Source of the DNA: Rhodanobacteraceae bacterium
Lineage (GTDB): Bacteria; Pseudomonadota; Gammaproteobacteria; Xanthomonadales; SZUA-5
Length of the DNA: 64,000 nt
NCBI GenBank assembly: GCA_031409855.1
Contig: JANNYA010000226.1
Coordinates: forward strand, 5,192-69,191
Direction: 5' to 3'
The notes under the pieces are model-generated. The model made no database searches. It saw only the letters and a program-made list of their open reading frames with translations, and was not told where the DNA came from. Positions 6,777-21,695 of this stretch are shown here, one piece after another (within the stretch, counting starts at the first letter, position 1; every line of letters starts with the position of its first letter). The translations under genes were made by a program, and so were the position numbers.

Positions 6777-7463
6777 ATGAGCAACCCACATTTCACCCCC
6801 GAGTCGCTGCAATTTCTGCGGGATTTGGCAGAGAACAACAGCCGGGAATGGTTCACCCCGCGCAAGGCGCAATACGAAGCGCTAGTGCGGGATCCATTTT
6901 TGGCGCTGATTGAAGTCATGCAGCCCGCACTTGCGAAAATCAGCCCACACTTTCGCGCCGATCCCAAACCGATTGGCGGCAGCCTATTTCGGCTGTATCG
7001 CGACGCGCGCTTTTCCAACGACAAATCCCCCTACAAACCCTGGGCCGGTGCGCGTTTTTTCCACGAACGCGCAAAGCAAACCCCAGCGCCCAGCTTTTAT
7101 CTGCACATCGCCCCCGGCGATTGCTTTATCGGCGGCGGAATTTGGCACCCGGAACCACCCACTCAGCGCAAAATTCGCGAATTCATCCTGGAAAACCCCA
7201 GCAGCTGGATCGAAGCCACGCAAGTCGCGCCGTTCAACAGCCACTTCACGCTCGGCGGTGACACGCTAGTGCGCCCACCGCGCGGATTCGATGCCACGCA
7301 TCCGCTCGTCAACGACATCAAACGCAAAGACTTCGTTGCGCTAAGGCCCCTAACCGACGCACAAGTTTGTCATAGTGGCCTGCTGACCCAAGTTGCAACC
7401 TGCTTTAGCAGCTGCGCACCGTTGATTGATTATTTGTGTGCGGCGTTGGAATTGGAGTTTTAG
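6777..7463 (+). CDS. DUF2461 (TIGR02453) family protein
   Basis: FTPESLQFLRDLAENNSREWF...GGSLFRLYRDARFSNDKSPYKPW matches the family's typical N-terminal and central motifs. Confidence 0.85.
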   Translation: MSNPHFTPESLQFLRDLAENNSREWFTPRKAQYEALVRDPFLALIEVMQPALAKISPHFRADPKPIGGSLFRLYRDARFSNDKSPYKPWAGARFFHERAKQTPAPSFYLHIAPGDCFIGGGIWHPEPPTQRKIREFILENPSSWIEATQVAPFNSHFTLGGDTLVRPPRGFDATHPLVNDIKRKDFVALRPLTDAQVCHSGLLTQVATCFSSCAPLIDYLCAALELEF

Positions 7464-7482
7464 AGGTTTTCGCGATGTGGAT

Positions 7483-8814
7483 ATGTCGTACGATGCGGCA
7501 TTAAATCAGCAGTACAACCCGACCAGAATGCGGCAAATTGACCTACAACTACCATCCCCAAAACGTGATCGTTCATCGTCCACTGGACGTGCGGGCTGGT
7601 ATCCCTACTATGCAGGTTTTTCGGCTGGTTTTGCGGGCGCAATCATGGATCGCTTTTGCACAAAGCAAGATGCGCGCATTTTGGACTCATGGAACGGCAG
7701 CGGCACGACGACAGCCGTTGCCGCTTCGCGTGGGATAGAGAGTTTTGGCTTTGATCTCAATCCGGTTATGTCTATCGTGGCTAGGGCGCGGTTATTGAGT
7801 AAGCGCGAACGATCCAGTTTGATTTCTTTAGCACGAGCAATTAATTCACTCGCACCAAAGGTCTCGTTTGACCAGTCCGACGCGTTAGCGACTTGGTTCA
7901 AACCAGCAACTGTCACAACGATTCGCAGCATTGAAAGCGCGATTCAACGACTATTCTTTGGTGATGATCGCCTGACGATGGCAACGCATATGCAAGAGCG
8001 CCCATTTTCAGATCTAGCCGCCTTTTTTTATGTCGCTCTATTCCGAACGGTTCGCGGGCTTTTGTCGACGTTGCAAAGCTCCAACCCTACCTGGATGAAG
8101 CGCCCAAAATGCGCCGCTGATCGCATTCAACTGCCCAGAAACTTAATTTTTGACGAATTTTTAGCGAACGCAGTACTTATGGAAGCCGCGCTAGACGCAG
8201 ATGCGTTTGAGATGGATGGCAAAGTGCATATCCAAGTAGCTGCGTCGGCAAATATACCGATGGCATCGAATTCCATCGACTTCGTGCTTACCTCTCCGCC
8301 CTATTGCACCCGAATTGACTACGCAGCAGCAACGCGAATAGAACTCGCAATTCTAGGGATTTCCGATGGCGAGCCTTTTGAGTCCCTGCGTCGAAAGCTT
8401 ATGGGCACAACCACAGTCCCCCGTATTGCGCCAGTACGCAAAGATTCGTGGGGCACCCTTTGCAACGAATTTCTGCAAGCTGTGGAATCCCACTCTTCCC
8501 GAGCATCAGCTGTTTACTATCTGAAAGGCCACTGCCAGTATTTTGATGGTCTTCAAGCATCGGTCAATGAGCTACACCGTTGCCTTAAAACATCTGGGCA
8601 AGTTTGCATGGTCGTGCAAGATTCGTTTTACAAAGACATACATATTGATCTTGCTGGCATTTGCATCGAAATGGCTCAACCATTAGGTATGGAGCTAAGC
8701 TTTCGCCAGGATTTTATTCAATCAAGAAATCGGGCCCAGGCCCATCCAAACGCTAAGCCCTATCGAAACAGCGCGCAAGCGACAGAAAGTGTGTTGGTGC
8801 TTACTAAGCACTGA
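7483..8814 (+). CDS. Amino (N6-adenine or N4-cytosine) DNA methyltransferase with no cognate classical endonuclease
   Basis: The AdoMet-binding motif is ILDSWNGSGTTTAVAASRGIESFGFDLNP (GSGTT at 7696-7710). The catalytic tetrapeptide SPPY lies in DFVLTSPPYCTRIDY (8293-8304). The start is ATG 7483 or the in-frame GTG 7477. The track ORF start at 7426 would overlap the upstream gene. GC is lower than in the flanks. Confidence 0.75.
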   Translation: MSYDAALNQQYNPTRMRQIDLQLPSPKRDRSSSTGRAGWYPYYAGFSAGFAGAIMDRFCTKQDARILDSWNGSGTTTAVAASRGIESFGFDLNPVMSIVARARLLSKRERSSLISLARAINSLAPKVSFDQSDALATWFKPATVTTIRSIESAIQRLFFGDDRLTMATHMQERPFSDLAAFFYVALFRTVRGLLSTLQSSNPTWMKRPKCAADRIQLPRNLIFDEFLANAVLMEAALDADAFEMDGKVHIQVAASANIPMASNSIDFVLTSPPYCTRIDYAAATRIELAILGISDGEPFESLRRKLMGTTTVPRIAPVRKDSWGTLCNEFLQAVESHSSRASAVYYLKGHCQYFDGLQASVNELHRCLKTSGQVCMVVQDSFYKDIHIDLAGICIEMAQPLGMELSFRQDFIQSRNRAQAHPNAKPYRNSAQATESVLVLTKH

Positions 8815-8861
8815 TTCGCCCGAAAGTTGCTGTTAGTCATGACAAGAAAGGAATTTTTATT

Positions 8862-10043
8862 ATGGCAAAGCCCGTCAAAACACCGGCTATTTCATCAAAA
8901 GAAAATCCATCGCTGCGGGAGATAGTAGATCGCACAGCGGTAATGGCTAAGACTCGGCGATTGGATATTTCTTTCAATGAGCTTATGGATATGGCAGAAA
9001 ATGGTGAACTGGAGATACGCCCGGAATTCCAACGAATTTTCGTTTGGACTGAAGCGCAACAGTCCAGATTCATTGAATCGTTATTACTTGAATTACCCGT
9101 GCCTCCGATATATGTAATTGAGCAGGGTGAGGAAGGACACTACCTATTAATTGATGGCTTACAACGACTTTCTACCTACCTACATTTTCGAGGTTGTTTA
9201 ACTAACAAATACCGAGACGTTGAACATGGTCAATATCTAAAACTTGAGTCCTGTGACATCGTTACACAACTTAACGGCATTACATGGGATCAACTCGACA
9301 CGGCGTTACAAATCAGACTCAAGCGTTCATTCATAATTATTCAAGTTATTCGAAAGGAAAGTAACAACGACCTCAAGTTCCATATGTTTAAACGTTTGAA
9401 CGCAGGCGGAGCGAGTTTGTCCCCCCAGCAATCGCGCAATGCATTTATGCGAATACTTCCAAATGGCGATCAAGTCATGGACTTCGCCGAATCAGTTGCT
9501 AAGACTCCCGATTTTATCGCGACTTGCACATCTGTACTTTCGGACAAGCACATGGATGGTCAAAATGATGCGGGCTTTGCCTTAAGATTTTTTGCCTTCA
9601 AAAATGCGCGCGCCAATTACATCCACGACGTCGATTCCTTTATTGATGATTTCGTTGAGGAAATTGCACGTGAAGGTGCATCAAAGAAGACGAGTTTTGA
9701 CTACATAAAAGAGAGAAAACATTTTCTGAAGACCTTTGAAGTACTTAACACTGCAACTGCGGACCGTTCATTTACTTTCCCTAATCGTGACTATACGGAG
9801 TTGACTTTAGGTTTTTCTGTCTATCACTTTGAAGGCGTAACGTTAGGCATTCAGCCTTACCTAGAACACTTGGACGCCACCGATTCGAGACAAATGTTAC
9901 GATTGGGCAGGGCACTGACCGAAGCACGGCTATCTTCTAAGTTCAAAACGGTTTCCGCAGGCGGCGGCAAAAATACGAAACGGCAACTCGACGCGCGTAT
10001 CGCAATAATTGGCTTAGCAGTTAAATCGATGTTGAAATTGTAA
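8862..10043 (+). CDS. DUF262 (ParB/GmrS-like nuclease/NTPase superfamily) protein lacking a DUF1524 tail
   Basis: Signature motifs are RPEFQRIFVW (PEFQR at 9021-9035) and LLIDGLQRLSTY (DGLQR at 9153-9167). GC is about 40% by hand count. An RBS-like AAAGGAA lies upstream. Confidence 0.85.
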   Translation: MAKPVKTPAISSKENPSLREIVDRTAVMAKTRRLDISFNELMDMAENGELEIRPEFQRIFVWTEAQQSRFIESLLLELPVPPIYVIEQGEEGHYLLIDGLQRLSTYLHFRGCLTNKYRDVEHGQYLKLESCDIVTQLNGITWDQLDTALQIRLKRSFIIIQVIRKESNNDLKFHMFKRLNAGGASLSPQQSRNAFMRILPNGDQVMDFAESVAKTPDFIATCTSVLSDKHMDGQNDAGFALRFFAFKNARANYIHDVDSFIDDFVEEIAREGASKKTSFDYIKERKHFLKTFEVLNTATADRSFTFPNRDYTELTLGFSVYHFEGVTLGIQPYLEHLDATDSRQMLRLGRALTEARLSSKFKTVSAGGGKNTKRQLDARIAIIGLAVKSMLKL

Positions 10044-10048
10044 ATATA

Positions 10049-10744
10049 ATGAATGCTGAAGATGCCGCGACTCAATTAGAGGACGATAAGCGCAGTCGGC
10101 TTAATGAGTTGACTTTCCTAGAAAACATCTGCAACTCATTGCCCGACGAAATTCAACAAAACCGTATGCGTAAAGCAGTAATTCTTATGCTCTATGCACA
10201 ATTGGAGGGGTTTACCAAAACGGCCTTAGAAATTTATTGCCGACATATCAACGAGGCAGCATTGAGATGCGGTGATGTATTACCTGAGCTCGCGACCAGC
10301 GCATTTTCCGAAGTTTTTAAGGCATTACAAGGTTCGGATAAAGCTACAAAAAAATTCTTACCTAATGAGCTTCACGAACTGAAAGAAGACTTGCGAACGT
10401 TTGCAATTCAAAAAACATTAGTCTCATTGTGTGCCAATTTTATGCAGGCTGAACTTAAAATTCCCGACAAGTACGTCGATATGGAATCAAATCTAAAGCC
10501 TATGGTGCTTAAGAAAAATCTGTACCGTTTAGCTCTACCGTTCCAAATGTTCAACGAACACATCGGCATATTAGACCGGCTTTTGAATCAGCGAAACACA
10601 ATAGCGCACGGAGGACTGGTAGCCGGAATTGGCGCGGTCGACTATGCAGAAATGCGTCAAGCCGCGTTAAATATAATTGACGCACTTCAGGAAAAAGTTA
10701 TTCAGGCAATTTCAACTCGAAGCTATTTGCGGGACCAGGTTTAA
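10049..10744 (+). CDS. HEPN-like nuclease. Its size and architecture resemble the MAE_28990/MAE_18760 (RiboL-PSP-HEPN) family.
   Basis: A 231-aa helical protein with the C-terminal motif LLNQRNTIAHGG (Rx4H, 10592-10609). It starts 5 nt after the DUF262 stop. GC is about 40%. Confidence 0.65.
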   Translation: MNAEDAATQLEDDKRSRLNELTFLENICNSLPDEIQQNRMRKAVILMLYAQLEGFTKTALEIYCRHINEAALRCGDVLPELATSAFSEVFKALQGSDKATKKFLPNELHELKEDLRTFAIQKTLVSLCANFMQAELKIPDKYVDMESNLKPMVLKKNLYRLALPFQMFNEHIGILDRLLNQRNTIAHGGLVAGIGAVDYAEMRQAALNIIDALQEKVIQAISTRSYLRDQV

Positions 10745-10746
10745 AT

Positions 10747-13032
10747 CTAAACCACCAAAGCCCTAGCCGCCGCCAACACCGTGTCATCCGAAGGCAGCAC
10801 CAACGTCGCCGCACCCGCCAGCGGCGTAAACGTATCAGCACCCACGACGCGCTTGCAGGCTTTGGCGCCTAGGCCGGCTTCAACAATCGCGGTGAATACG
10901 CCTTCACTGATACCGGCGCTTTCACGGCCTTCGTCGACGATCAATACCGCCCTGCATTCGCGCGCGTGTTCGGCGATTTGCTTGGCGTTGAGCGGCTGCA
11001 GCCAGCGTAGGTCCAGCACCCGCACTTTTTTGCCTTCCATCGCTAACTGCTTCGCGGCGCGCAGGCTCATCAATACGCCATTGGCATAGCTAATAATGAG
11101 TAAGTCAGTGGCCTCGCCAAAATAAATTCGGCCTTCGCCTAGTTTCATTGCTTGCGTCGGTGCTGGATAGGCGAACTGCCACTGGCCATCGCCCGGTTCA
11201 TGCAAATCTTTCGTCATGTACAGCGCGATGGGCTCCAAGAATGCGCAGACGCGGCCATCCACATGCGCCAATGCCATCAGCGTACGCAGCATCATCGCTG
11301 CGTCATCGCCCCGGCTGGGGCAGCCGATAACCAATGCCGGAATATCGCGCAGCGCGGTGATCGAGTTATCGTTATGAAAATGCCCACCAAAGCCTTTTTG
11401 ATAGCCTAGGCTGGCCATGCGCATCACCATCGGGTTGCGAAATTGGTTATTGCTGAAAAATTGCAGGCTGGACGCCTCGCCGCGAATTTGATCGCAGGCA
11501 TTATGAAAATACGCCAAATACTGGATTTCCGGCATCGGCAATAGCCCGACATTGGCAAAGCCCTGCGCCAAGCCCAAGATCGTTTGCTCATCCAATAGGG
11601 TATTGAAAACACGGCTGCCTTTGAAGGTTTTGAACAAATTCTTGGTGACCGTGTAAACGCCACCTTTGAGCGCCACGTCTTCGCCAAAGATCACCGAATT
11701 CGGGTATTTCAGCAGTAAATCATGCAGCGCCAAATTGATATTGACGGCCAAATGTTTCGGCGCAGCTGCTTCTGGCAACTGCTCGCCCCACAGTGCAACG
11801 CGCTTATCCGCATAGTCGCAGCGTATGGATTCGGCTTTGACCGCTTCCGGTGTGTAAGGCGCTAACGGTGCCATGACTGCCGCAAGCGTGGTCAATTTCG
11901 GCGACTGATCCGCCGCTTCAGCGGCAGCAAAGCATTTTTTGCGGATCGATTCGTACAGCGCAATCAACTCATCCGGCGTCAACGCACCGGAATCGAGCGC
12001 AAGCGCCGCACTTTTGAGTATAGGATCGGCGGCCTCGCCCGCCAGCACATCCTCAAGCGCGCGATATTCGATTTCAAAATCGGTGCCCGCGTGGCCCATC
12101 AGCCGCACGGTTTTTAAGTGCAAAAAGGTTGGACGACGGCTACTGCGGCAGTGATTGACTGCCGCCTGCACTGCCGAGTACCCCGTGCCCAAGTCCAAGC
12201 CATCGGCATAAAAATAATCCAGCGCATTACGGTTTTTGAAACTCGCCGCGATCCAATTGCTGGGCGAGCGCACGGAAATACCAATGCCGTTGTCTTCACA
12301 GACAAATAAACACGGTGCGCTCAGGCCCTGATACGCAGTCCACTGCGCGGCATTAAAAGCGCCCTGCGCGGTGGAATGGTTGGCGCTGGCGTCGCCAAAG
12401 GAGCAAATTGAAATGCTGTCGTCTGGAATGGGTAGCTTGTGATTCAAGCGTTTCGCAAGCTCAATGCCCAGAGCGGTGCCGTAGGCTTTCGGCAAATGGC
12501 TGGCAATCGTGGACGTTTGTGGCAACACCCATAGCGGTTTCGAGCCCCAAACTTTGTGCCGGCCACCGCTGGCGGGATCTAAGCTCGAGGCAGCAAAGCT
12601 GTAGGCGGAATCCATGATTGGATCCATGCCCGGCAGCTTGCGAAAACGCTCCGCCATAAAACCGCCGGAACGATAGTGCAAAAACGCCGGGTCGGTGTGG
12701 CGCGCAGCACGCGCGACCATCGCGTTACCTTCATGGCCGGAGCTACCAATGGTGTAAAACACTTTATTTTGCACGCGCAACACGCGCGCCATCAAATCTA
12801 GGTGCCGTGAAATCAGCTGCGATTCTAAAAGTTCTAACAAATCAGCAACTTGCAGCGAACCGTCAGCAACTAGATCATGGCGGCCTAAGCGCACAGTAGC
12901 GCCTGCGTGTTGGCGACAAAACGCGAGAAAATTCGCATCGACGGCTTCTGCGCGGTTTACGCCACGGCTTGTGGACAGATAGCTTGGTAAAGGCAGGGGG
13001 CTAGGTAACGGCACGGGGCTAGATAAAGACAT
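10747..13032 (-). CDS. Thiamine-diphosphate-dependent 2-oxoacid dehydrogenase E1 component, fused alpha+beta subunits
   Basis: The N-terminal half is E1-alpha-like (GSSGHEGNAMVA, FGDASANHSTAQGAFN = TPP-binding GDG..N region). The C-terminal half is E1-beta/transketolase-like (FGEDVALKGGVY, LDEQTILG, ASLGYQKGFGGHFHNDN). Confidence 0.85.
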   Translation of the reverse strand: MSLSSPVPLPSPLPLPSYLSTSRGVNRAEAVDANFLAFCRQHAGATVRLGRHDLVADGSLQVADLLELLESQLISRHLDLMARVLRVQNKVFYTIGSSGHEGNAMVARAARHTDPAFLHYRSGGFMAERFRKLPGMDPIMDSAYSFAASSLDPASGGRHKVWGSKPLWVLPQTSTIASHLPKAYGTALGIELAKRLNHKLPIPDDSISICSFGDASANHSTAQGAFNAAQWTAYQGLSAPCLFVCEDNGIGISVRSPSNWIAASFKNRNALDYFYADGLDLGTGYSAVQAAVNHCRSSRRPTFLHLKTVRLMGHAGTDFEIEYRALEDVLAGEAADPILKSAALALDSGALTPDELIALYESIRKKCFAAAEAADQSPKLTTLAAVMAPLAPYTPEAVKAESIRCDYADKRVALWGEQLPEAAAPKHLAVNINLALHDLLLKYPNSVIFGEDVALKGGVYTVTKNLFKTFKGSRVFNTLLDEQTILGLAQGFANVGLLPMPEIQYLAYFHNACDQIRGEASSLQFFSNNQFRNPMVMRMASLGYQKGFGGHFHNDNSITALRDIPALVIGCPSRGDDAAMMLRTLMALAHVDGRVCAFLEPIALYMTKDLHEPGDGQWQFAYPAPTQAMKLGEGRIYFGEATDLLIISYANGVLMSLRAAKQLAMEGKKVRVLDLRWLQPLNAKQIAEHARECRAVLIVDEGRESAGISEGVFTAIVEAGLGAKACKRVVGADTFTPLAGAATLVLPSDDTVLAAARALVV

Positions 13033-13186: not shown

Positions 13187-15214
13187 ATGCGTTTCGCAGC
13201 ATTCATCAAACAAACAGGGCTTCAGATGACCATTCCGCTAATCCGGTTTCAACTAGGACACCATCGAAGACTCGCAGCGCTGCTGTTCGCGCTGAGCGTT
13301 GCACCCGCGAGCTTTGCCAAGATGTTGATTCCAATGCCTATCAATTTGGATTCACTAGCGAATGTGGAGGATAAAGGACTGTGCTTGATCGCTGGCTGCG
13401 ATGACTTTGGCTCGTCGGTACGCCTACCGCCGCATGAAGTGGCGCAAATGCCACTTTGGAAAACCGATTCGCGGGCGTGGGCGCGGGCACTATTTTGGTT
13501 TTGCAATGCCGATGGTTATTGCGCAAAGTCAAATGATCAGGTGCCTCCTGTGGGCGCATGGGGCGAAATAAACGTGCCAATTCCTGCAAAAGAAAATCTG
13601 ATCGTACACTTGCCATACTCACTACTGTCGTCGGTGTTGAAGGATCCGGCGCCGCAAGTTCGCGCCGCCGCGTTAATGCGTATGGATCTAACCAGCCCGG
13701 GCGCACGCATAGCCGCCGAAGCGTTGCTGAGCGACGCCGCTTGGGTTGAACCGCTGGCGCACACAGTGGCAGACCACGCCTATTCGGTGCTGAATGCCGC
13801 GTTTCCAGAGCGCTTTTCGACGCGCGGCAAAATCGCGCTAAACCGGGAGCGTGGCATTAAAGCCCTGGCCGACATACGCATGCCCTACGCCAAACTAGCG
13901 ACCGATTGGTCAAGCAAAATTGCGAACTACCCGCACACGACCGGTGTGAACGCGACGCCTGACTGGGCGCAAAAAAACGTCACCAGCTTTTGGCTAGATC
14001 GCGGCGCGCTGGCAGGGTTTTGGCATTTAGCCAGCCCACAGCAACTGGAGGCGGCGCTTGCGCATCAAGATCCAACGATACGCCTGACGGCATTCGACGC
14101 CTTGTCGATCCGCGAACGGCGTAAAGACTTAAGCGCACTTGCGATTCGAGCTAACAAATTAGGTGGCGCGAGCAGTATCGGCAGCTGCATTCCCCAAATG
14201 CAATCGATTGGCTTTGATTTGTTCACTGCGATCCTGCAAAGCGGTCAAATGCATGAAACAACGCTGTTTATGGACTCCTTGGACTATCAAACCAAAACGC
14301 GTTTATCGTTAGAGCTTGCCGGCAACCCAGTCACAGAAATCGCTGCGTATTTGACTCAACATCCGAACAATGCAGCGCAGTTCGCGCCGATTCTGCGCCG
14401 CTGGGCGCAGGCAGACACACGATATTCAGTGTCAGCACTGGCCGCTGCGGGCTTGAGCGCAGACTTGCCACGTTTGAAAACCGTTGCCGACGCCGGTGAC
14501 TTTTCCCAGCTGCTGGGGCGCGATGATGCAGCGATCTATCAATCAGCACAGTCATACTATGTGGCGCGGCGCACCTTTGATTCGACGCAAAAGCGCAGCG
14601 AAATCGACAATCAGAGCAGGCGCGAGGGCGTTTCTAGCCAATGGTTCCAATACGCGTATTCCTTAGCAGATGATAAGGCTGCGGCGCTGTTCGCCGAAAT
14701 TTTTGCAGCTGCCACCCCCAAGGCCGCACGTACGGAACAATTGCGCACCTTGCATGCGGCACTTATTTACTCGGCAAACCGAAAGTCCATGAATGCATTG
14801 CTTTGGCGGCAGCACGAAATCTTGCTGCCGCAACACGCTGCAGCGATCTTGGCGGCAGACCCAAACGCAGCGAAAACTGCCTTGCGGTTGCTCAGCAACA
14901 CAGAGTGGTCAAGTCAAATCACCGATCTAGCGAAGCTACAAACGACGGACTATTGCTATGACTACGCTAGCATCATGACGCCACTGATGAACCTGCTACC
15001 ACTCAAACCACAAGAAACCTATCTGCTGTATGCACTAGACAACGAACCGGCGTGCGCGATTGCAAGTTATCTAACAAGCGCCAATGTAAAACCGCTCACC
15101 GCAGCTCAGGTGTTGAGCGCACGCATCGCGCGCGAACGTGGGAAGAGTCAGGTGCTGCTGGCAGCGGCACTTCAGACGGCACGTTACCAATGGCCGGAAC
15201 TGGACGGGCGCTAG
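13187..15214 (+). CDS. Hypothetical secreted alpha-helical protein with HEAT/ARM-like repeats
   Basis: The signal peptide is clearest from the alternative start at 13226 (MTIPLIRFQLGHHRRLAALLFALSVAPASFA). HEAT-like segments are DPAPQVRAAALMRM and HQDPTIRLTAFDAL. I recognised no catalytic motif. Confidence 0.55.
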   Translation: MRFAAFIKQTGLQMTIPLIRFQLGHHRRLAALLFALSVAPASFAKMLIPMPINLDSLANVEDKGLCLIAGCDDFGSSVRLPPHEVAQMPLWKTDSRAWARALFWFCNADGYCAKSNDQVPPVGAWGEINVPIPAKENLIVHLPYSLLSSVLKDPAPQVRAAALMRMDLTSPGARIAAEALLSDAAWVEPLAHTVADHAYSVLNAAFPERFSTRGKIALNRERGIKALADIRMPYAKLATDWSSKIANYPHTTGVNATPDWAQKNVTSFWLDRGALAGFWHLASPQQLEAALAHQDPTIRLTAFDALSIRERRKDLSALAIRANKLGGASSIGSCIPQMQSIGFDLFTAILQSGQMHETTLFMDSLDYQTKTRLSLELAGNPVTEIAAYLTQHPNNAAQFAPILRRWAQADTRYSVSALAAAGLSADLPRLKTVADAGDFSQLLGRDDAAIYQSAQSYYVARRTFDSTQKRSEIDNQSRREGVSSQWFQYAYSLADDKAAALFAEIFAAATPKAARTEQLRTLHAALIYSANRKSMNALLWRQHEILLPQHAAAILAADPNAAKTALRLLSNTEWSSQITDLAKLQTTDYCYDYASIMTPLMNLLPLKPQETYLLYALDNEPACAIASYLTSANVKPLTAAQVLSARIARERGKSQVLLAAALQTARYQWPELDGR

Positions 15215-15340: not shown

Positions 15341-18300
15341 ATGGGATCTGAAATGCGCGATAAATTCGCTCGACGTTTTCAATATTTGCGTGTGGCACTG
15401 CTGACATTAGGCATGGTGGGAACGGCGATGGGTCAGTCGTTCACGCTTTCCGTGCCTGCAAACCCAAATGGATTGCCAGTAGCAGCCGGTGCAGACGTCG
15501 GTTTTAGCGTCGGTGGGGCGACTGCAGGTGTTTCAATAATCATTAACAAAAGCGCAGACGTTACCTATCTCGCGAGCTTAACCACTCCTGGCTGGACTTG
15601 CACTGGTAGCGTTGCTTTGGTCTGCTCCGGCCCTGGTAACGGTTTCAATTTTACCTTGACAATGCCGCCGGAAGCCCCGTTAAACCCAATCACTTCAGCA
15701 ACTGGTGTGCGCACCATAACTGCAGGCCAGGGAACGGTTTCGGCTTCCAAGGATGTAACCTACAGCGTAGTCAGCGATATCGTCATCCAGCCCCCAACTG
15801 TTGCTGCACTTGCCGTTGGTGCATCCTCCCAGCTAAATTTTGTCGTCATTAATGGCGGGCCTGCCGCACCCTACAACTGGTTTTACCAAACGCGCGTGCT
15901 TTTTACCTTGCCGAGCGATCTCGTTTACGCCGGTTCCAACACCGCGCCTTGGTCTTGCACTGCTGCAGGTGCAAACGTTACTTGCTTGCTTGATGAAGCA
16001 TCGACGCCTAGCCCAGTGTCCCGCCCAATCCCTTTGACAGTGCGCCGAAGTTCCGCGCCAGCAGGGCAGTCGCTCATCAGTTATTCGGTAGGCACGTTAA
16101 ATAATGACCCCAACCCCAGCAATAATCAGGGTTCGGTTTTGGTGCCGCTTGGCGTGGCGGCAACGGTAGATTTACGCCTGGCCGGTACTAATCCTGGCCC
16201 ACAGGACAGCGGCACAGCTTTTACAACACGCTTTACACTTGATGCTGTGCAAGGCCCAGGGGCGGCGAATACCGAGGTTCGCTTTAGTCAACCCAGCAGT
16301 TCGACCCAGCAAATTCAGGCCGTTAGTGCTTCGTCCTCTCAGTTTACCTGCTCCGTCGATGTGGGCGGCCTCGGCGGCAATTGCGTCGCCAGTGTTTATG
16401 GCACTTTGGGCGTTACAACCACGCCAGCACCGGTTGAGTTTAGCGTCACCGGAGTTGCGCCGGTCGTAGCGACATCCCAGTCGAATTCAATCGTATTGCG
16501 TGGCGTCGTCAGCAGCGCAACGTCGGATACAAATCCTGGCAATAACGCTGCTGATGTCGGCATTACGGTCCTTGGGCCAGCGCCAGTCGCCGCGCAGTTA
16601 CAAATTAGCAAAAACGCTAGCGCAAGTTCGGTCAGCAGTGGCCAGGAATTCACCTATGCCTTAAATGTTTCAAACGTTGGTTCTGTGCCCGCGACTAGCG
16701 TAATTCTTGAAGATCAATTGGCTTCAAGTTTGACCTTTCTAGCCATAGAACAAGCGTCGGCAGGGCTTAGCTGCAACCAATCTGCGGGCCTAGTGCGCTG
16801 TATACAAACCCAGTTGAATCAGGGCGCACAAGCCACAGTAACTTTGCGTGTCCGCGCGCCAACGGCTCTGGGAACCATCGCCAATACCGCCACCGTCACT
16901 TCCAACAACTCAAGCGCGAGTCAATCGGCCAGCGCGAACGTGCAAGTCAGCTCAGGCCTAGATTTGGTATTGGTAAAATCAGACAGCGTTGATCCGGTCA
17001 ATGTCGGCGGCGAGTTTGACTATTTATTAAGCGTTAGCAACCAAGGCACAAGTGTTGCTAGGTCGCTGATTTTGAGCGATGACTTGCCTAACTCAACAAG
17101 TTTTGTTTCCGCAAATGGCGGCGGTTTTAGCTGCAGTGGCGGGCAGAATCTGCGTTGCACTTTAAGCAGCCTTGCGGCAGGCGCAACTGCCACGGTTCAG
17201 GTAAGAGTGCGTGCATTATCAGCAGGTCAAGCACTCAACACAGCCAGTGTCACGACGCCAGATGTAGAAGTTACTTTGGCAAATAATTCTGATTCTGAAA
17301 CAACTACATTCGCCATCGTTAGCGTCGATACCGACCTAGTGCTAACCGCACCCAGCACGCAAAATGCAACGGTCGGCAGTGATACCGCCGTCATCTACAC
17401 CGTGCGCAATGCGGGGCCAGCGAATTCCAACTGCGGCACATTAAATTTATCGCTGAGTGGCGGCGTTGCCGCCGCTTTTTCACTGAAATCGGTGTCCGGA
17501 TTAGGCGCAACTTGCTCCGTCGCCGGTAGCACAGCGACTTGTCAGCTGCCGCCTATTAATGCATTCGCGCAAACGCAAATAAGCGCCACTTTGGGCGCAA
17601 TTGGCGCGGCAAGCTCGACGCTGACTGCCACGCTTAACTGTGCGACCGACACAAATCCAAGCAACAACACCGCCACCACGGCGCTTACCGGCATTTTGGC
17701 GCCCGGCGCAGATTTAAAGTTGACCGTACGCGATGACGATCCAGTTGTTCTTGCTAGTGAATACAACTATGTCGTCAGCGCGGATAACTTTGGCCCCGAG
17801 GAAGCGCGCGGAGTCGCTGTCAAATTCACCCTACCCGAAGGCACGGATTTTGTCAGCTTCACGGGCGCTAACTTTAGCTGTTTGGCGCAAGCTCAAATCA
17901 TTACGTGCCCGTATTCCGTAAATTTAAGCGCGTTGGCAACCCAACGCACCGCGCGTCTGACCGTTCGGGTTCGTGCGCGTGCCGAAGTGGGTCAAGTGAC
18001 GGCAGTTATTGAACTCAGCAGTGTAAGTCGTGACTCAAATCCCAGTGACAATACGATCCGCGAAACCACGCAAATCAATGCCAAAGACGCAGAACAAGTG
18101 GCCGGCGTGATTTTACCGCAACTTACCGATCAATTTGCACTTGATGCAGCACCCGTGGTGGCCGATATTTGTGCAAAGCCCGTGCCTGAACTCGTCGCGC
18201 AATGTGAAGCCATTATCGATGCGGCTTTGGATCGCGACATCGGCGCATTGCAGAGTGGTCTACGCGCGGTATTCCCGGAAGAGGTTCTATCTGAACGTCT

Positions 18301-19357
18301 AGCCCTGATTCAGCAGTCCGCGACCCAGTTTAGTAACGTTGATTCCCGCCTGAGCGAGTTGCAAAACGGCGGTGGTTCGGGTTTGAGTTTGAGCGGACTT
18401 AACTTGGCGTTTGGCAAAACACTGATACCGCTGGGCCTGCTGCAACCCTTGTTAGACGACGACGACGAAGCCGAGGTCGGCGGCAGCGGTGATCTTATTT
18501 CACCGTGGGGTTTCTTTGTCAACGGCACTTACAGCCGTGGCGATCAAACCCTAGACCGTACGCTTCGCACCGTCAGCTCGGATTTCAGCAACATTGGCGT
18601 CACTGCCGGTGTCGATTACCGTCTGAGCATCCGTACCGTGCTCGGTGCGGCATTAGGGTATTCCAAGTTCGACACGGATCTTTCCGATGACGGAAGCACC
18701 AGCAGCAAAGCGATCACGCTGACCGGCTATGGCTCGCACTACTTTACAGACAATTTATACGCCGATGCTCGCATCACCCTTGGCAACGCAAGTTTTGATT
18801 CGATTCGTAGGATTCGTTTTAACTATCAAAACTTCAGCGTTGATAAAACCGCGTTAGGCAGCAACGATGCGCGTCAGTATGCTCTTGCGGTTGGTATGGG
18901 CTACAACCTGCAAAAAGGTGCCTGGTCGATTACCCCGAATGCGAACATTCGATACTTCCGCAGCAATGTCGACGGCTACACTGAAACCGGTGCCGGTGCA
19001 AACAACGTGATATTCGACGACCAGCAGGTTAGCTCGTTGCAATATAACTTGGGCGTCCAGGTGTCGCGTCCGATTAGCATGAGCCACGGGGTCTTAGCGC
19101 CACAGTTTGACATCAGCTTCGGACATGAGTCCCAAGACGCAAATTTTGCGCTAAATGCACGATTGGTCGATGCCACCGCGACTCAGGTCTTCGTAGTGCG
19201 CGCGCAAGAACCGGATAAGAGCTTTGGCAACATCGGTTTGGGCTTTGTCTACGTTACCAGCAATGGCCGTCAGGGTTATTTGACGTACCGAAGGTTATTC
19301 GGGAATGACTCGATTCAACGCGACTCCATTAATTTGGGTGCCCGCTTTGATTTTTAG
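15341..19357 (+). CDS. Autotransporter (type Va) with a DUF11-type repeat passenger
   Basis: Signal peptide LRVALLTLGMVGTAMG. The passenger carries repeated modules of the DUF11 type, for example LQISKNASASSVSSGQEFTYALNVSNVGSVPATSVILEDQL and LVLVKSDSVDPVNVGGEFDYLLSVSNQGTSVARSLILSDDLP (about 16590-18060). The C-terminal ~285 aa (about 18500-19354) is beta-barrel-like with alternating hydrophobics and ends in ...INLGARFDF. Confidence 0.8.
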   Translation: MGSEMRDKFARRFQYLRVALLTLGMVGTAMGQSFTLSVPANPNGLPVAAGADVGFSVGGATAGVSIIINKSADVTYLASLTTPGWTCTGSVALVCSGPGNGFNFTLTMPPEAPLNPITSATGVRTITAGQGTVSASKDVTYSVVSDIVIQPPTVAALAVGASSQLNFVVINGGPAAPYNWFYQTRVLFTLPSDLVYAGSNTAPWSCTAAGANVTCLLDEASTPSPVSRPIPLTVRRSSAPAGQSLISYSVGTLNNDPNPSNNQGSVLVPLGVAATVDLRLAGTNPGPQDSGTAFTTRFTLDAVQGPGAANTEVRFSQPSSSTQQIQAVSASSSQFTCSVDVGGLGGNCVASVYGTLGVTTTPAPVEFSVTGVAPVVATSQSNSIVLRGVVSSATSDTNPGNNAADVGITVLGPAPVAAQLQISKNASASSVSSGQEFTYALNVSNVGSVPATSVILEDQLASSLTFLAIEQASAGLSCNQSAGLVRCIQTQLNQGAQATVTLRVRAPTALGTIANTATVTSNNSSASQSASANVQVSSGLDLVLVKSDSVDPVNVGGEFDYLLSVSNQGTSVARSLILSDDLPNSTSFVSANGGGFSCSGGQNLRCTLSSLAAGATATVQVRVRALSAGQALNTASVTTPDVEVTLANNSDSETTTFAIVSVDTDLVLTAPSTQNATVGSDTAVIYTVRNAGPANSNCGTLNLSLSGGVAAAFSLKSVSGLGATCSVAGSTATCQLPPINAFAQTQISATLGAIGAASSTLTATLNCATDTNPSNNTATTALTGILAPGADLKLTVRDDDPVVLASEYNYVVSADNFGPEEARGVAVKFTLPEGTDFVSFTGANFSCLAQAQIITCPYSVNLSALATQRTARLTVRVRARAEVGQVTAVIELSSVSRDSNPSDNTIRETTQINAKDAEQVAGVILPQLTDQFALDAAPVVADICAKPVPELVAQCEAIIDAALDRDIGALQSGLRAVFPEEVLSERLALIQQSATQFSNVDSRLSELQNGGGSGLSLSGLNLAFGKTLIPLGLLQPLLDDDDEAEVGGSGDLISPWGFFVNGTYSRGDQTLDRTLRTVSSDFSNIGVTAGVDYRLSIRTVLGAALGYSKFDTDLSDDGSTSSKAITLTGYGSHYFTDNLYADARITLGNASFDSIRRIRFNYQNFSVDKTALGSNDARQYALAVGMGYNLQKGAWSITPNANIRYFRSNVDGYTETGAGANNVIFDDQQVSSLQYNLGVQVSRPISMSHGVLAPQFDISFGHESQDANFALNARLVDATATQVFVVRAQEPDKSFGNIGLGFVYVTSNGRQGYLTYRRLFGNDSIQRDSINLGARFDF

Positions 19358-19462
19358 GGTCTAAGCTTTCCAAGTAGTTTGTTTGCAATCGCAAACAAAT
19401 GGATGAAAGACTTATTCGAACATTTGAAGTATTTTTTGGTGAAGTTTTTTAGGAGTGCGACA

Positions 19463-21451
19463 ATGTTTCAAATCGGTAAATTGCAGACGATGGTTCTGGC
19501 TTTTTCAATCGCCATTTTGGCTGCATGGCCAAGTTCGGCGAAAAAATTGACCGGCGCGGATATTCCTGAAGGCGCAATCAAAATCGACGATTTGATGATT
19601 GTAGACTGCTTATTGCCCGGCCAAGTGCGGCAAATGGGCACAGAGTTTACCTACTTGTCCGCGCGTCGCCCGATCCGCACTAGCGCCAAAGACTGCGCTA
19701 TACGCGGCGGCGAATACGTTGCGTTTGATCGCGCTAATTACGGCACCGCATTAAAAATTTGGCTGCCAGCGGCGAATCAAAACGACGCCAACGCGATGAA
19801 TTACGTCGGTGAAATCTATGAAAAAGGCTTGGGCGTGGCGCCGGATTACGCGCTCGCAAAAAGTTGGTATGAAAAGTCAGCCGCGAAAGGCAATTCCAGT
19901 GCAATGATCAATTTGGGCTCCATGTTTGAGCGCGGCCAGGGTGTCAGCGCCGATATGGTGCAGGCGATGAACTGGTACCGCAAGGCATCGGGCTTAAAAG
20001 GCTCTGATCTGGAAGTGGTGACTGAGGCTGATCGAGTATCGCGGCGCGCGCAAGCGGAAGAACTCGATCAGTTGCGTATTCAAACGCTTGATTTAAAGCA
20101 ACAGTTAAGCGATGCGCGCGGCGCTCTAAAAGCCAAACAAGATTTATTGGCGGCAACGCAAGCGACGCTGGGTGCGACGCAAGCCAAAGTCGCGACCCTG
20201 AAAGCTGCAAGCGCAGAAGCGCAGGCGGCGCGCACACAAATTGCGGCGTTGCAAACCCAGCTCGCCGAACAACAAAGCTCGGTCGACACCGCACGCATGA
20301 GCACCGGCGTGGCGCTGTCAAAATTAGGCGTAGATTTCAGCAAAACCGGCGCTGCACCTCCGGGCACAAAGCCTACGATCAACGTTATTTCGCCCAAATT
20401 GGCACTTACTCGGGGCGGTGTACTTGCGGCACCGCTATTGACGCAGTTACCAACCTACCAAATTATCGGCCGCGTCTACCCTTCCAAAGGGCTGCGCGCG
20501 CTGAAAGTCAATGACCAAAACGTATTGGACAAAATTGACGAGGACGGTATTTTTGAAGTCACCGTCAGTGTCGCGAACGCCAATCAGCCGGTCGCCATCG
20601 ACGCCGTGGCACAAGATGGTTTAGAAACCACCGAAAGTTTTGTACTGACCTCTGAATCCCAAGCGGCTGCCACCGCAAAACGCGTCACCAGCAAAATGTT
20701 TGCGCGCCGCATGCGTGGCGATTTGGGCAATTTTCAGGCGCTGGTGATTGGCAACGACAATTATGACGGCTTTGCCAAACTTGCCTCAGCCAGTTCCGAT
20801 GCGACTGAAATTGGCAGCATTCTAAGCACGCGCTATGGCTTTAAGGTCGACGTGTTAACCAACGCGACGCGCGCACAGTTGCTGCTGAAGCTTTCAACGC
20901 TCGCCACCACACTCAAAGCAAATGACAATTTGGTCATATATTATGCCGGCCATGGGCAAATCGATACCGCCGGAAAGGGCTATTGGGTGCCGATTGATGG
21001 TAAAGAAAATGACCCGACAAGCTGGGTGGGCAACGATGTAATCACCGACTTTTTAGGTGCGGCGCTTGCCAAACACGTCATGGTGATTGCAGATTCCTGC
21101 TATTCAGGAACGCTTAGCGGTGCAGCCACCCGGCCCATTCCAGCCACCGCAAAGGATGAAGACGTCCTGTTTATCTCGCGCGTCAAGTCGCGAACGGTGC
21201 TGGCCTCGGGTGGCTTGGCACCCGTATTAGACAGCGGTGGCAACGGCCATTCGATTTTTGCGTCCGCCTTTATCAGAGCGTTAAACACTGGCGACGGTTT
21301 GATGGACGGCTACCGATTATTTGAAGATATCAACACGCAAGTAGTGCAGCGATCCGCAGCCGCACGTCTGCCGCAGCGCCCGCAGTATTCGGCGCTGAAA
21401 CACGCCGGGCATGAAGGCAGCGAATTCTTCTTCTTACCGAAAGATGCATGA
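19463..21451 (+). CDS. Secreted Sel1-repeat / coiled-coil / caspase-like (peptidase C14, orthocaspase) protein
   Basis: An AGGAG RBS at 19451-19455 lies 8 nt before ATG 19463. The signal peptide is MFQIGKLQTMVLAFSIAILAAWPSSA. Sel1 repeats are NAMNYVGEIYEKGLGVAPDYALAKSWYEKSAAKGNSSAMINLGSMFERGQGVSADMVQAMNWYRKA. An Ala/Gln-rich coiled coil spans about 20055-20300. The C14 domain runs from about 20730, with the catalytic His in YYAGHG (cat 20951-20953) and Cys in ADSCYSG (tgc 21098-21100). Confidence 0.85.
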   Translation: MFQIGKLQTMVLAFSIAILAAWPSSAKKLTGADIPEGAIKIDDLMIVDCLLPGQVRQMGTEFTYLSARRPIRTSAKDCAIRGGEYVAFDRANYGTALKIWLPAANQNDANAMNYVGEIYEKGLGVAPDYALAKSWYEKSAAKGNSSAMINLGSMFERGQGVSADMVQAMNWYRKASGLKGSDLEVVTEADRVSRRAQAEELDQLRIQTLDLKQQLSDARGALKAKQDLLAATQATLGATQAKVATLKAASAEAQAARTQIAALQTQLAEQQSSVDTARMSTGVALSKLGVDFSKTGAAPPGTKPTINVISPKLALTRGGVLAAPLLTQLPTYQIIGRVYPSKGLRALKVNDQNVLDKIDEDGIFEVTVSVANANQPVAIDAVAQDGLETTESFVLTSESQAAATAKRVTSKMFARRMRGDLGNFQALVIGNDNYDGFAKLASASSDATEIGSILSTRYGFKVDVLTNATRAQLLLKLSTLATTLKANDNLVIYYAGHGQIDTAGKGYWVPIDGKENDPTSWVGNDVITDFLGAALAKHVMVIADSCYSGTLSGAATRPIPATAKDEDVLFISRVKSRTVLASGGLAPVLDSGGNGHSIFASAFIRALNTGDGLMDGYRLFEDINTQVVQRSAAARLPQRPQYSALKHAGHEGSEFFFLPKDA

Positions 21452-21477
21452 TCAGCCGTTAGCCCGTAGGACTAAGT

Positions 21478-21525
21478 AGTTCTGGTGCCCCGATTAGCCC
21501 CGACGGCATCAGAACTAGGTTTTAA
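21478..21525 (+). terminator. Candidate rho-independent terminator after the caspase gene
   Basis: A 12-bp stem, AGTTCTGGTGCC (21478-21489) with GGCATCAGAACT (21505-21516), contains one G-U pair and has a 15-nt loop. It is followed by AGGTTTTAAAT. The loop is large and the U-tract is short, so confidence is low. Confidence 0.3.
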
Positions 21526-21695
21526 ATCCCGCCCGGCCGCCCTGGAATCGTTTGGCATTAATTGTGATCGCCTAGGCCAGCGTCTGCCTTGCTGCACTGA
21601 GTGCTACTTTGGGGTGCTACACTTGATCGTCTTAATCTTGTGAATTATCTTGCCAAGCGTGCTTTTAAATTGCTCAAACCAACTCGCGCCAGCCT

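Follow-up and report, generated by a model that had tools for sequence, protein, structure and literature searches.

The stretch of DNA analysed here, hereafter the window, comprises 64,000 nucleotides (nt) of a Rhodanobacteraceae bacterium (GenBank assembly GCA_031409855.1, contig JANNYA010000226.1, positions 5,192 to 69,191) and carries three adjacent genes, g1, g2 and g3, which encode a DNA amino-methyltransferase (MTase), a DUF262 protein and a HEPN protein, respectively. This trio is a genuinely conserved unit, and we put at about one half the probability that it forms a three-gene cassette against phages or other mobile genetic elements, in which DUF262-HEPN defence is coupled to methylation. 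A defence role, as proposed in the original prediction made from the sequence, is the best reading of the locus. According to the mechanism that we propose, g1 would write a sequence-specific mark on host DNA, probably N4-methylcytosine (m4C), and g2, with its ParB-like NTP-binding domain and a helical, putatively DNA-binding domain and with no nuclease domain, would be a nucleoside triphosphate (NTP)-dependent DNA sensor whose output is set by that mark. The sensor would either fire on unmodified incoming DNA or, like SspE, be licensed or restrained by modified self DNA, and the HEPN RNase g3 would then cleave RNA, so that phage gene expression is stopped or the infected cell is arrested. We infer the sensing by g2, the RNase activity of g3 and the dependence of the pair on methylation. 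The methylation-coupled reading is suggested by the linkage of the pair to a dedicated MTase, by the invariance of motifs and by the order in which one related locus has decayed, as well as by the recurrence of distant pairs beside other methylases and by the precedent of SspE.

A scan of representative genomes (one per species) of 185,579 species gave at least 563 relatives, and gene context was tabulated for the best 80 of these loci, which are 41-56% identical to g2. These 80 loci come from many phyla, including Verrucomicrobiota, Acidobacteriota, Alpha-, Beta- and Gammaproteobacteria, Bacillota, Bacteroidota, Planctomycetota, Cyanobacteria, Chloroflexota, Actinomycetota, Myxococcota and Deinococcales. 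The co-occurrence check that had been proposed along with the original prediction was run on them and shows a g3 homologue directly downstream of g2 in 79/80 loci, with a full g1-type MTase directly upstream of the DUF262 gene in 65 of the 77 loci that could be assessed (84%), these being distributed over more than 10 phyla and the open reading frames (ORFs) usually overlapping or abutting. The first three contexts inspected all display the order MTase-DUF262-HEPN (3/3). At four of the 77 loci, another MTase or a whole restriction-modification (R-M) system adjoins the pair (β-class N6/N4, XhoI R-M, or Eco57I/MmeI type). When the family is sampled from the MTase side, the DUF262/HEPN pair or its remnant is present in 5/5 contexts. 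Motif invariance and distance correlations were assessed on 62 complete trios, in which the pairwise distances of the g1, g2 and g3 proteins correlate with one another (Mantel r 0.69-0.77, p=0.001). It should be noted that the 84% linkage holds only for this well-sampled subfamily. Distant DUF262-HEPN pairs (24-33% identity), which occur on plasmids and in temperate phages, are found without a g1-type MTase and often adjoin other methylases (C5, Eco57I-type, or β-class N6/N4), such as an Eco57I-type MTase in a Terrisporobacter phage, or R-M systems, such as BsuBI/PstI. Pairs on plasmids adjoin replication and partition genes.

Several individual loci illustrate the range of arrangements. In Termitidicoccus mucosus (CP109796; locus L171, 4001-9023), two DUF262-HEPN pairs stand in tandem behind a single g1-type MTase, with an integrase-like gene upstream, which suggests one methylase serving two sensor/effector modules. 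At locus L002 (6019-7835), two ORFs of 98 and 119 amino acids (aa) make up a split HEPN gene, and an XhoI-family restriction endonuclease (REase) gene lies directly downstream on the opposite strand; at locus L043, the pair directly follows an N6_N4 MTase and an XhoI REase. The sole locus of the 80 that has no HEPN gene is that of Bradyrhizobium nitroreducens (L055, 7944-10122), where g2 ends early, at about residue 342-353, and is followed by an unrelated 378-aa ORF, possibly an insertion, while the g1-like region is embedded in a much longer ORF. The P2-like coliphage Peduovirus P24B2 (NC_049387; L175, 140-3041) encodes a DUF262 protein of 381 aa and a HEPN protein of 239 aa at its genome end, adjoining a short C5 cytosine methylase gene (234 aa) on the opposite strand. 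The Escherichia coli IncF plasmid NZ_CP081195 (L087, 3890-5590) encodes a distant pair, a DUF262 protein of 353 aa and a MAE_28990 HEPN protein of 211 aa, with no methylase. This pair rides conjugative qnrS1-bearing IncF plasmids, with identical copies on plasmids of 9/5,426 complete E. coli genomes, and a blastn search with the plasmid pair returned identical plasmid copies only.

The g1 protein matches Pfam N6_N4_Mtase (8e-10), the MTase_II models of PADLOC (up to 7e-23, some of them collinear across the full length) and, strongly, the DNA-methyltransferase models of PHROG. A profile of 25 family members gave significant matches in the PDB to β-class DNA amino-methyltransferases only, and these alignments are permuted, with motif IV of the family falling on the N-terminus of the matched chain and motif I on its C-terminus. 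The motif signatures of g1 in this profile search were vlDPWnGSGTT and SSPPY, and the top three matches, TTHA0409 and two DNA cytosine-N4 MTases, carry SPPY. Residues D68, W70, N71, G72, G74 and T75 are invariant in 62/62 members. As judged from its motif order, with motif I before motif IV, g1 represents a circularly permuted form of the β-class N4/N6 DNA MTases, and the solved structures that can be reached by sequence are only distant, permuted β-class relatives. From this sequence evidence, we infer that DNA is the substrate of g1, and SPPY indicates that its product is probably m4C. The AlphaFold2 model of g1 (predicted local distance difference test score, pLDDT, 86) contains a helical insert of about 145 aa between β2 and β3.

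The sole Pfam domain found in g2 is GmrSD_N (DUF262; 9e-24). Its best PADLOC match is NsnA (3e-54, aa 30-308 only), followed by PD-T4-2_A (PDLC04027), in which aa 39-380 align with profile positions 41-354 of 363. The protein is laid out as a ParB/Srx-fold DUF262 NTP-binding domain (about aa 30-195) and an all-helical C-terminal domain (about aa 196-393), and Foldseek searches with its AlphaFold2 model (pLDDT 82) gave weak but consistent matches to CTPase-type domains of ParB, Noc and KorB and to BrxU. The DGLQR motif of the NTP pocket is the counterpart of the canonical DGQQR in GmrSD, BrxU and SspE, and the GmrSD-like HEC-06 no longer defends once the corresponding Q and R have been mutated. 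Neither Pfam, the AlphaFold2 model nor Foldseek revealed a DUF1524/HNH, PD-(D/E)xK or other nuclease domain in g2, and the earlier idea that the DUF262 protein might act as a nickase is thus poorly supported.

The third protein, g3, matches Pfam PF18735 (4e-26) and PF18737 (1.5e-24), and proteins of this type bear the NCBI name 'MAE_28990/MAE_18760 family HEPN-like nuclease'. Its residues R182, H187 and G188 are invariant in 62/62 members, and N183 is conserved in 61/62; g3 is predicted to be the RNase effector. Sequence searches of the PDB with g2 and g3 returned no significant match. Six close homologues of g3 (P0006, P0007, P0009, P0010, P0016 and P0017), which are 265-308 aa long and 46-54% identical to g3, have an N-terminal glycogen-binding-type domain (CBM48/AMPK1_CBM) fused to HEPN, a fusion that is unexpected for a defence RNase.

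Table 1. Positions of the three genes, their junctions and their motifs in the window. Invariance is given as members of the 62 complete trios.
Feature	Positions	Strand	Description
g1	7483-8814	+	443-aa DNA amino-methyltransferase, ATG start
g2	8862-10043	+	393-aa DUF262 (GmrSD_N) protein
g3	10049-10744	+	231-aa HEPN protein, MAE_28990/RiboL-PSP family
g1-g2 spacer	8815-8861	+	47 nt, GGA-rich ribosome-binding site, one promoter-like match no better than chance
Left junction	7464-7482		19 nt, from DUF2461 stop (7461-7463) to g1 ATG
Right junction	10745-10746		2 nt, between g3 stop (10742-10744) and convergent E1 stop (10747-10749)
g1 motif I (AdoMet-binding)	7696-7710	+	D-x-W-N-G-S-G-T-T (aa 68-76); positions are those of GSGTT (aa 72-76)
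g1 motif IV (catalytic)	8293-8304	+	SPPY (aa 271-274), each residue invariant, 62/62
g2 DUF262 motif	9021-9035	+	P-E-F-Q-R (aa 54-58); P54, Q57 and R58 invariant, 62/62
g2 NTP-pocket motif	9153-9167	+	D-G-L-Q-R (aa 98-102), invariant, 62/62
g3 HEPN motif	10592-10609	+	R-N-T-I-A-H (Rx4H, aa 182-187), followed by G188

The three co-directional ORFs, with their spacers and junction distances (Table 1), agree with the original prediction; its five motifs lie at the coordinates that it gave once aa positions are converted to nucleotides, and Pfam confirms its domain calls (MTase, DUF262/GmrSD_N and Rx4H HEPN). Only 5 nt separate g2 from g3. The flanking genes are identified by Pfam as DUF2461 on the left and a fused E1 dehydrogenase on the right, and an ORF and Pfam check of the neighbours upheld the claim that no REase, helicase or integrase is adjacent. 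The low GC content that had been estimated by hand is likewise confirmed, at 0.497 in g1, 0.433 in g2 and 0.424 in g3 compared with a mean of 0.552 for the window (sd 0.031, 1-kb windows), and the cassette is the deepest GC dip within the 64 kb. Alternative in-frame starts of g1 exist at GTG 7477 and TTG 7426; database gene calls use the former (445 aa), and the frame is open back to the latter, overlapping the final 38 nt of DUF2461. The first 18 or so residues of g1 are poorly conserved and have low model confidence. A promoter scan of the window found fewer sites than in shuffled sequence, and promoter and terminator scans of the window and of the 420-nt spacer of a related locus (described below) gave no signal over chance. 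At the borders of the cassette, no att-like direct repeats, tRNA or integrase were found, and a search of the window for rRNA and tRNA found none.

The cassette is found at the same chromosomal site in four related populations, at least three of them (L174, L177 and L178) other than that of the window. Among the contigs of these populations, protein identity is about 95% for E1 and about 94% for DUF2461, and the E1 neighbour is also present in all three. The identity of the cassette genes to those of the window differs between loci. In L174, the MTase is 89% identical, g2 61% and g3 66%; in L178, the MTase is not on the contig, and the C-terminus of g2 and g3 are each 69% identical; in L177 (ERZ27314334), the MTase is full length and 86% identical and the pair is deleted, a 1,262-nt deletion (window 9033-10295) having fused g2 codon ~58 to g3 codon ~83 (2132-2766). 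Synonymous differences per site amount to 0.52-0.53 in E1, 0.54-0.58 in g1 and 0.66 in the N-terminal part of g2, and they are saturated in the C-terminal half of g2 (0.72-0.77) and in g3 (0.77-0.81). The L174 copies of these two saturated parts are no nearer to the window than unrelated family members, and the L174 g1 is by far the closest of its family. Because of this pattern, the methylase is seen as inherited vertically with the chromosome, with the C-terminal half of g2 and g3 either replaced by recombination or representing ancient alleles. Accelerated evolution in situ was ruled out as the sole source of the divergence, since synonymous sites are saturated in these parts and not in g1 or the flanks. 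With the MTase as the protective partner, a decaying locus would be expected to lose the pair and keep the MTase, as L177 has done, and this series of orthologous loci represents a natural experiment that supports a protector/effector asymmetry.

Similarity to relatives that have no cassette stops at position 7466. The closest of these, L089 and L090, diverge 3 nt past the DUF2461 stop and continue with other genes, none of which the window has, so that they provide a synteny breakpoint only; their use as a clean empty site marking a precise insertion was rejected. The cassette is an old resident at this synteny breakpoint, and its interpretation as a recent, strain-specific low-GC insertion is not borne out, given the same site in L174, L177 and L178. 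The spacer upstream of the MTase in L174 (199-617) is a 420-nt non-coding sequence, compared with 19 nt in the window (7464-7482), and loss of its promoter region may have left the cassette in the window reliant on read-through from hemE-DUF2461.

Several observations weigh against the methylation-coupled reading. A 1.8-kb clone of PD-T4-2, the validated system with the same core architecture, contained no methylase, yet it was active and non-toxic. Pair motifs are intact at six of the 77 assessable loci, from four independent clades, that have no adjacent MTase; g1 is split or truncated at two more; and E. coli IncF plasmids hold the DUF262-HEPN pair without an MTase. The exchange of the g2 C-terminal half and g3 beside a retained MTase makes it unlikely that the sensor is tightly co-adapted to the sequence specificity of the MTase. 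In addition, g3 did not match the PADLOC model PD-T4-2_B at E<=0.1, a Foldseek search with the g1 model gives RNA amino-methyltransferases (Trm11) a higher rank than DNA MTases, and a literature search found no mechanism for PD-T4-2 and no experimental test of the MTase-linked form. A strict, R-M-like dependence on methylation is weakened because PD-T4-2 works alone, pair-only loci exist and the pair has been exchanged without the MTase. The same three facts, with the pair-only loci of the four clades joined by those of plasmids and phages, would fit an MTase that is functionally independent, either an orphan or regulatory enzyme or a hitch-hiking counter-restriction gene, beside a pair that works like PD-T4-2 on a phage-specific cue. 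We regard this explanation as unlikely, since the same unusual MTase family adjoins the pair in 84% of loci across phyla, always occurs with the pair or its remnant when approached from its own side (5/5 contexts), keeps its catalytic motifs invariant and co-diverges with the two other proteins. Somewhat more doubtful is the reading of the trio as an R-M system that has a failsafe of the PrrC type. The MTase and DUF262 would then be the restriction-modification pair, with unmodified DNA cut or nicked by the ParB-like domain itself, and DUF262 would restrain a latent suicide HEPN that is freed by phage anti-restriction. Anantharaman et al. (2013) do speak of a ParB nuclease and propose PrrC-like control for HEPN proteins embedded in R-M systems, and the decay pattern of L177 is R-M-like; however, g2 is without DUF1524/HNH or PD-(D/E)xK and its closest folds are of the CTPase type of ParB, Noc and KorB, DUF1524 does the cutting in BrxU, GmrSD and SspE, and pair-only loci persist without the MTase.

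An addiction module of the toxin-antitoxin kind, not primarily directed against phages, with HEPN as toxin, DUF262 as antitoxin or regulator and the MTase as epigenetic addiction element, appears improbable to us. HEPN toxins are common in toxin-antitoxin systems according to the literature, plasmid-borne pairs lie beside replication and partition genes, and the cassette has been kept at one chromosomal site through host divergence. Nevertheless, the homologous architecture of PD-T4-2 defends its native strain against phage, the lineage of L177 survived a clean deletion of the pair, and allele exchange with saturated divergence in the sensor and effector is typical of immunity genes. We give very little credence to the notion that g1 methylates RNA, placing a Trm11/RlmKL-like exocyclic-amine mark on tRNA or rRNA that would shield a host RNA target from HEPN. 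This notion was prompted by Foldseek, whose best matches to the g1 model are the Trm11 and TrmN tRNA N2-methylguanosine methyltransferases; in addition, Pfam UPF0020 (RMKL-like) passes its cutoff at aa 230-283, and JGI labels some homologues Trm11. It was dropped when the family profile reached significance only with β-class DNA MTases, with circularly permuted motifs; the type II MTase models of PADLOC and the PHROG DNA-methyltransferase models match strongly, and the Trm11 fold matches are explained by the I-to-IV motif order common to both groups.

The phenotype of DUF262-HEPN systems like PD-T4-2 is proven, and the well-sampled subfamily takes the MTase-linked form more often than any other architecture. 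The MTase offers a testable hypothesis for sensing, namely that the ParB-like NTPase reads methylation state. If true, this would link epigenetic self-marking to an RNase effector, a combination so far undemonstrated. The comparative results, namely a dedicated permuted SPPY MTase, an exchangeable sensor/effector and a natural MTase-only variant, sharpen the question of the role of the methylase. Tentatively, and with less confidence than we place in the general reading of methylation-coupled defence, we suggest that the locus could be an 'RNA-restricting R-M system', in which a DNA methyl mark (probably m4C) set by the dedicated permuted methylase would be read by a ParB-like DNA clamp or sensor that is gated by NTP and has no nuclease, RNA cleavage by HEPN would replace DNA cleavage, and the sensor/effector module would be exchangeable while the methylase stays. 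Such a system, if real, would also explain how PD-T4-2-type systems sense infection.

Elsewhere in the window, a 675-aa ORF beside E1 (13187-15214) starts with what looks like a signal peptide and gave no match to Pfam at E<=0.001. Further downstream (15341-24359) are genes for a 1,338-aa DUF11-repeat autotransporter, a 690-aa protein with Sel1 repeats and a caspase domain (Peptidase_C14) and an 887-aa Ser/Thr kinase with a fused FGE-sulfatase domain. The second-lowest GC patch in the window (18.5-20 kb, about 0.49-0.50) runs from the last part of the autotransporter gene into the first part of the caspase gene.

The locus is a typical member of a catalogued family whose core architecture has an experimentally validated match, and it is not a new kind of system. 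The statement that the trio could be assigned to no named system is thereby superseded, as g2 matches PD-T4-2_A and NsnA, the pair has the architecture of PD-T4-2 and the trio appears in Table 1 of Anantharaman et al. (2013). The record of PD-T4-2, a system of E. coli ECOR65, reads 'DUF262, HEPN' and gives a length of 1,540 bp, and the system confers protection from T4 on its native strain as well as on K-12 (Vassallo 2022); a review assigns it a PF18735-type HEPN. The g2-g3 core resembles it in having adjacent same-strand genes for a DUF262 protein and then a PF18735-class HEPN protein, and g2 matches PD-T4-2_A near full length (2e-32), whereas the dedicated MTase gene of the conserved unit is a third component that PD-T4-2 does not have. 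This likeness rests on PADLOC and Pfam profiles, and the relationship of g2 to PD-T4-2_A is distant, because NsnA scores higher and all relatives tested score alike on PD-T4-2_A (1e-28 to 1e-37). The HEPN partners of the E. coli plasmid and phage loci gave no match to PD-T4-2_B at E<=0.01 either; since this model matched no HEPN partner tested, it is not discriminating here, and PADLOC would not call PD-T4-2 at the locus. Related pairs from E. coli plasmids and phages are only 24-31% identical to g2, and a blastn search of E. coli genomes with the window pair gave no match.

The neighbourhood of MAE_28990/RiboL-PSP HEPN, ParB and DNA methylase takes up one line in Table 1 of Anantharaman et al. 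(2013), where the ParB protein is termed a nuclease and neither an experiment nor a census nor a mechanism accompanies the entry. All three of its components are present in the window, and g3 matches both PF18737 and PF18735; the label 'nuclease' for the ParB protein, in contrast, is unsupported by the present models. Menshen (NsnABC) is similar in that g2 is NsnA-like in its ParB-DUF262 domain and in that the effector is a predicted RNase in both. NsnA combines this domain with a ParBDB DNA-binding domain; in g2, the NsnA match covers aa 30-308, and the C-terminal half is helical in the model. Unlike Menshen, the locus has neither the NsnB ABC-ATPase (AAA_15 and DUF3696) nor the NsnC inPIN-nuclease gene; HEPN directly follows g2 with no ATPase in the neighbourhood, the convergent E1 gene comes next, and the MTase precedes g2. 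As a further precedent for the methylation-coupled reading, the authors of the Menshen study put forward that, with a solitary methylase next to it, ParB-DUF262 may be directed at genomes that are not modified.

GmrSD, BrxU and SspE share with g2 the N-terminal DUF262 NTP-binding domain and its DG(Q/L)QR motif, but g2, at 393 aa versus about 580-770 aa, is without the DUF1524 His-Me/HNH domain, which does the cutting in those three proteins. According to a review, the DUF262 domain of SspE senses host DNA modification and switches on its effector domain; in the window, by contrast, the HEPN effector is a separate protein, and the modification module is a single MTase and not SspABCD. The EcoprrI-PrrC system is alike in that a HEPN RNase is genetically tied to a DNA-modification system, and the proposed logic of DNA self-marking and RNA suicide is also alike. 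PrrC, however, has an ABC-ATPase domain and a complete type I R-M enzyme as its guard, whereas the HEPN protein of the window has a ParB-like partner and the locus is without an REase. Type II R-M systems resemble the cassette in the tight linkage of a solitary-looking amino-MTase to a potentially toxic partner and in the decay order of L177, in which the partner is lost and the MTase kept. They differ from it in that the trio and its neighbours include no REase, although some related loci do have one nearby (XhoI or BsuBI/PstI), and in that the partner of g1 is exchangeable without the MTase and can exist without an adjacent one.

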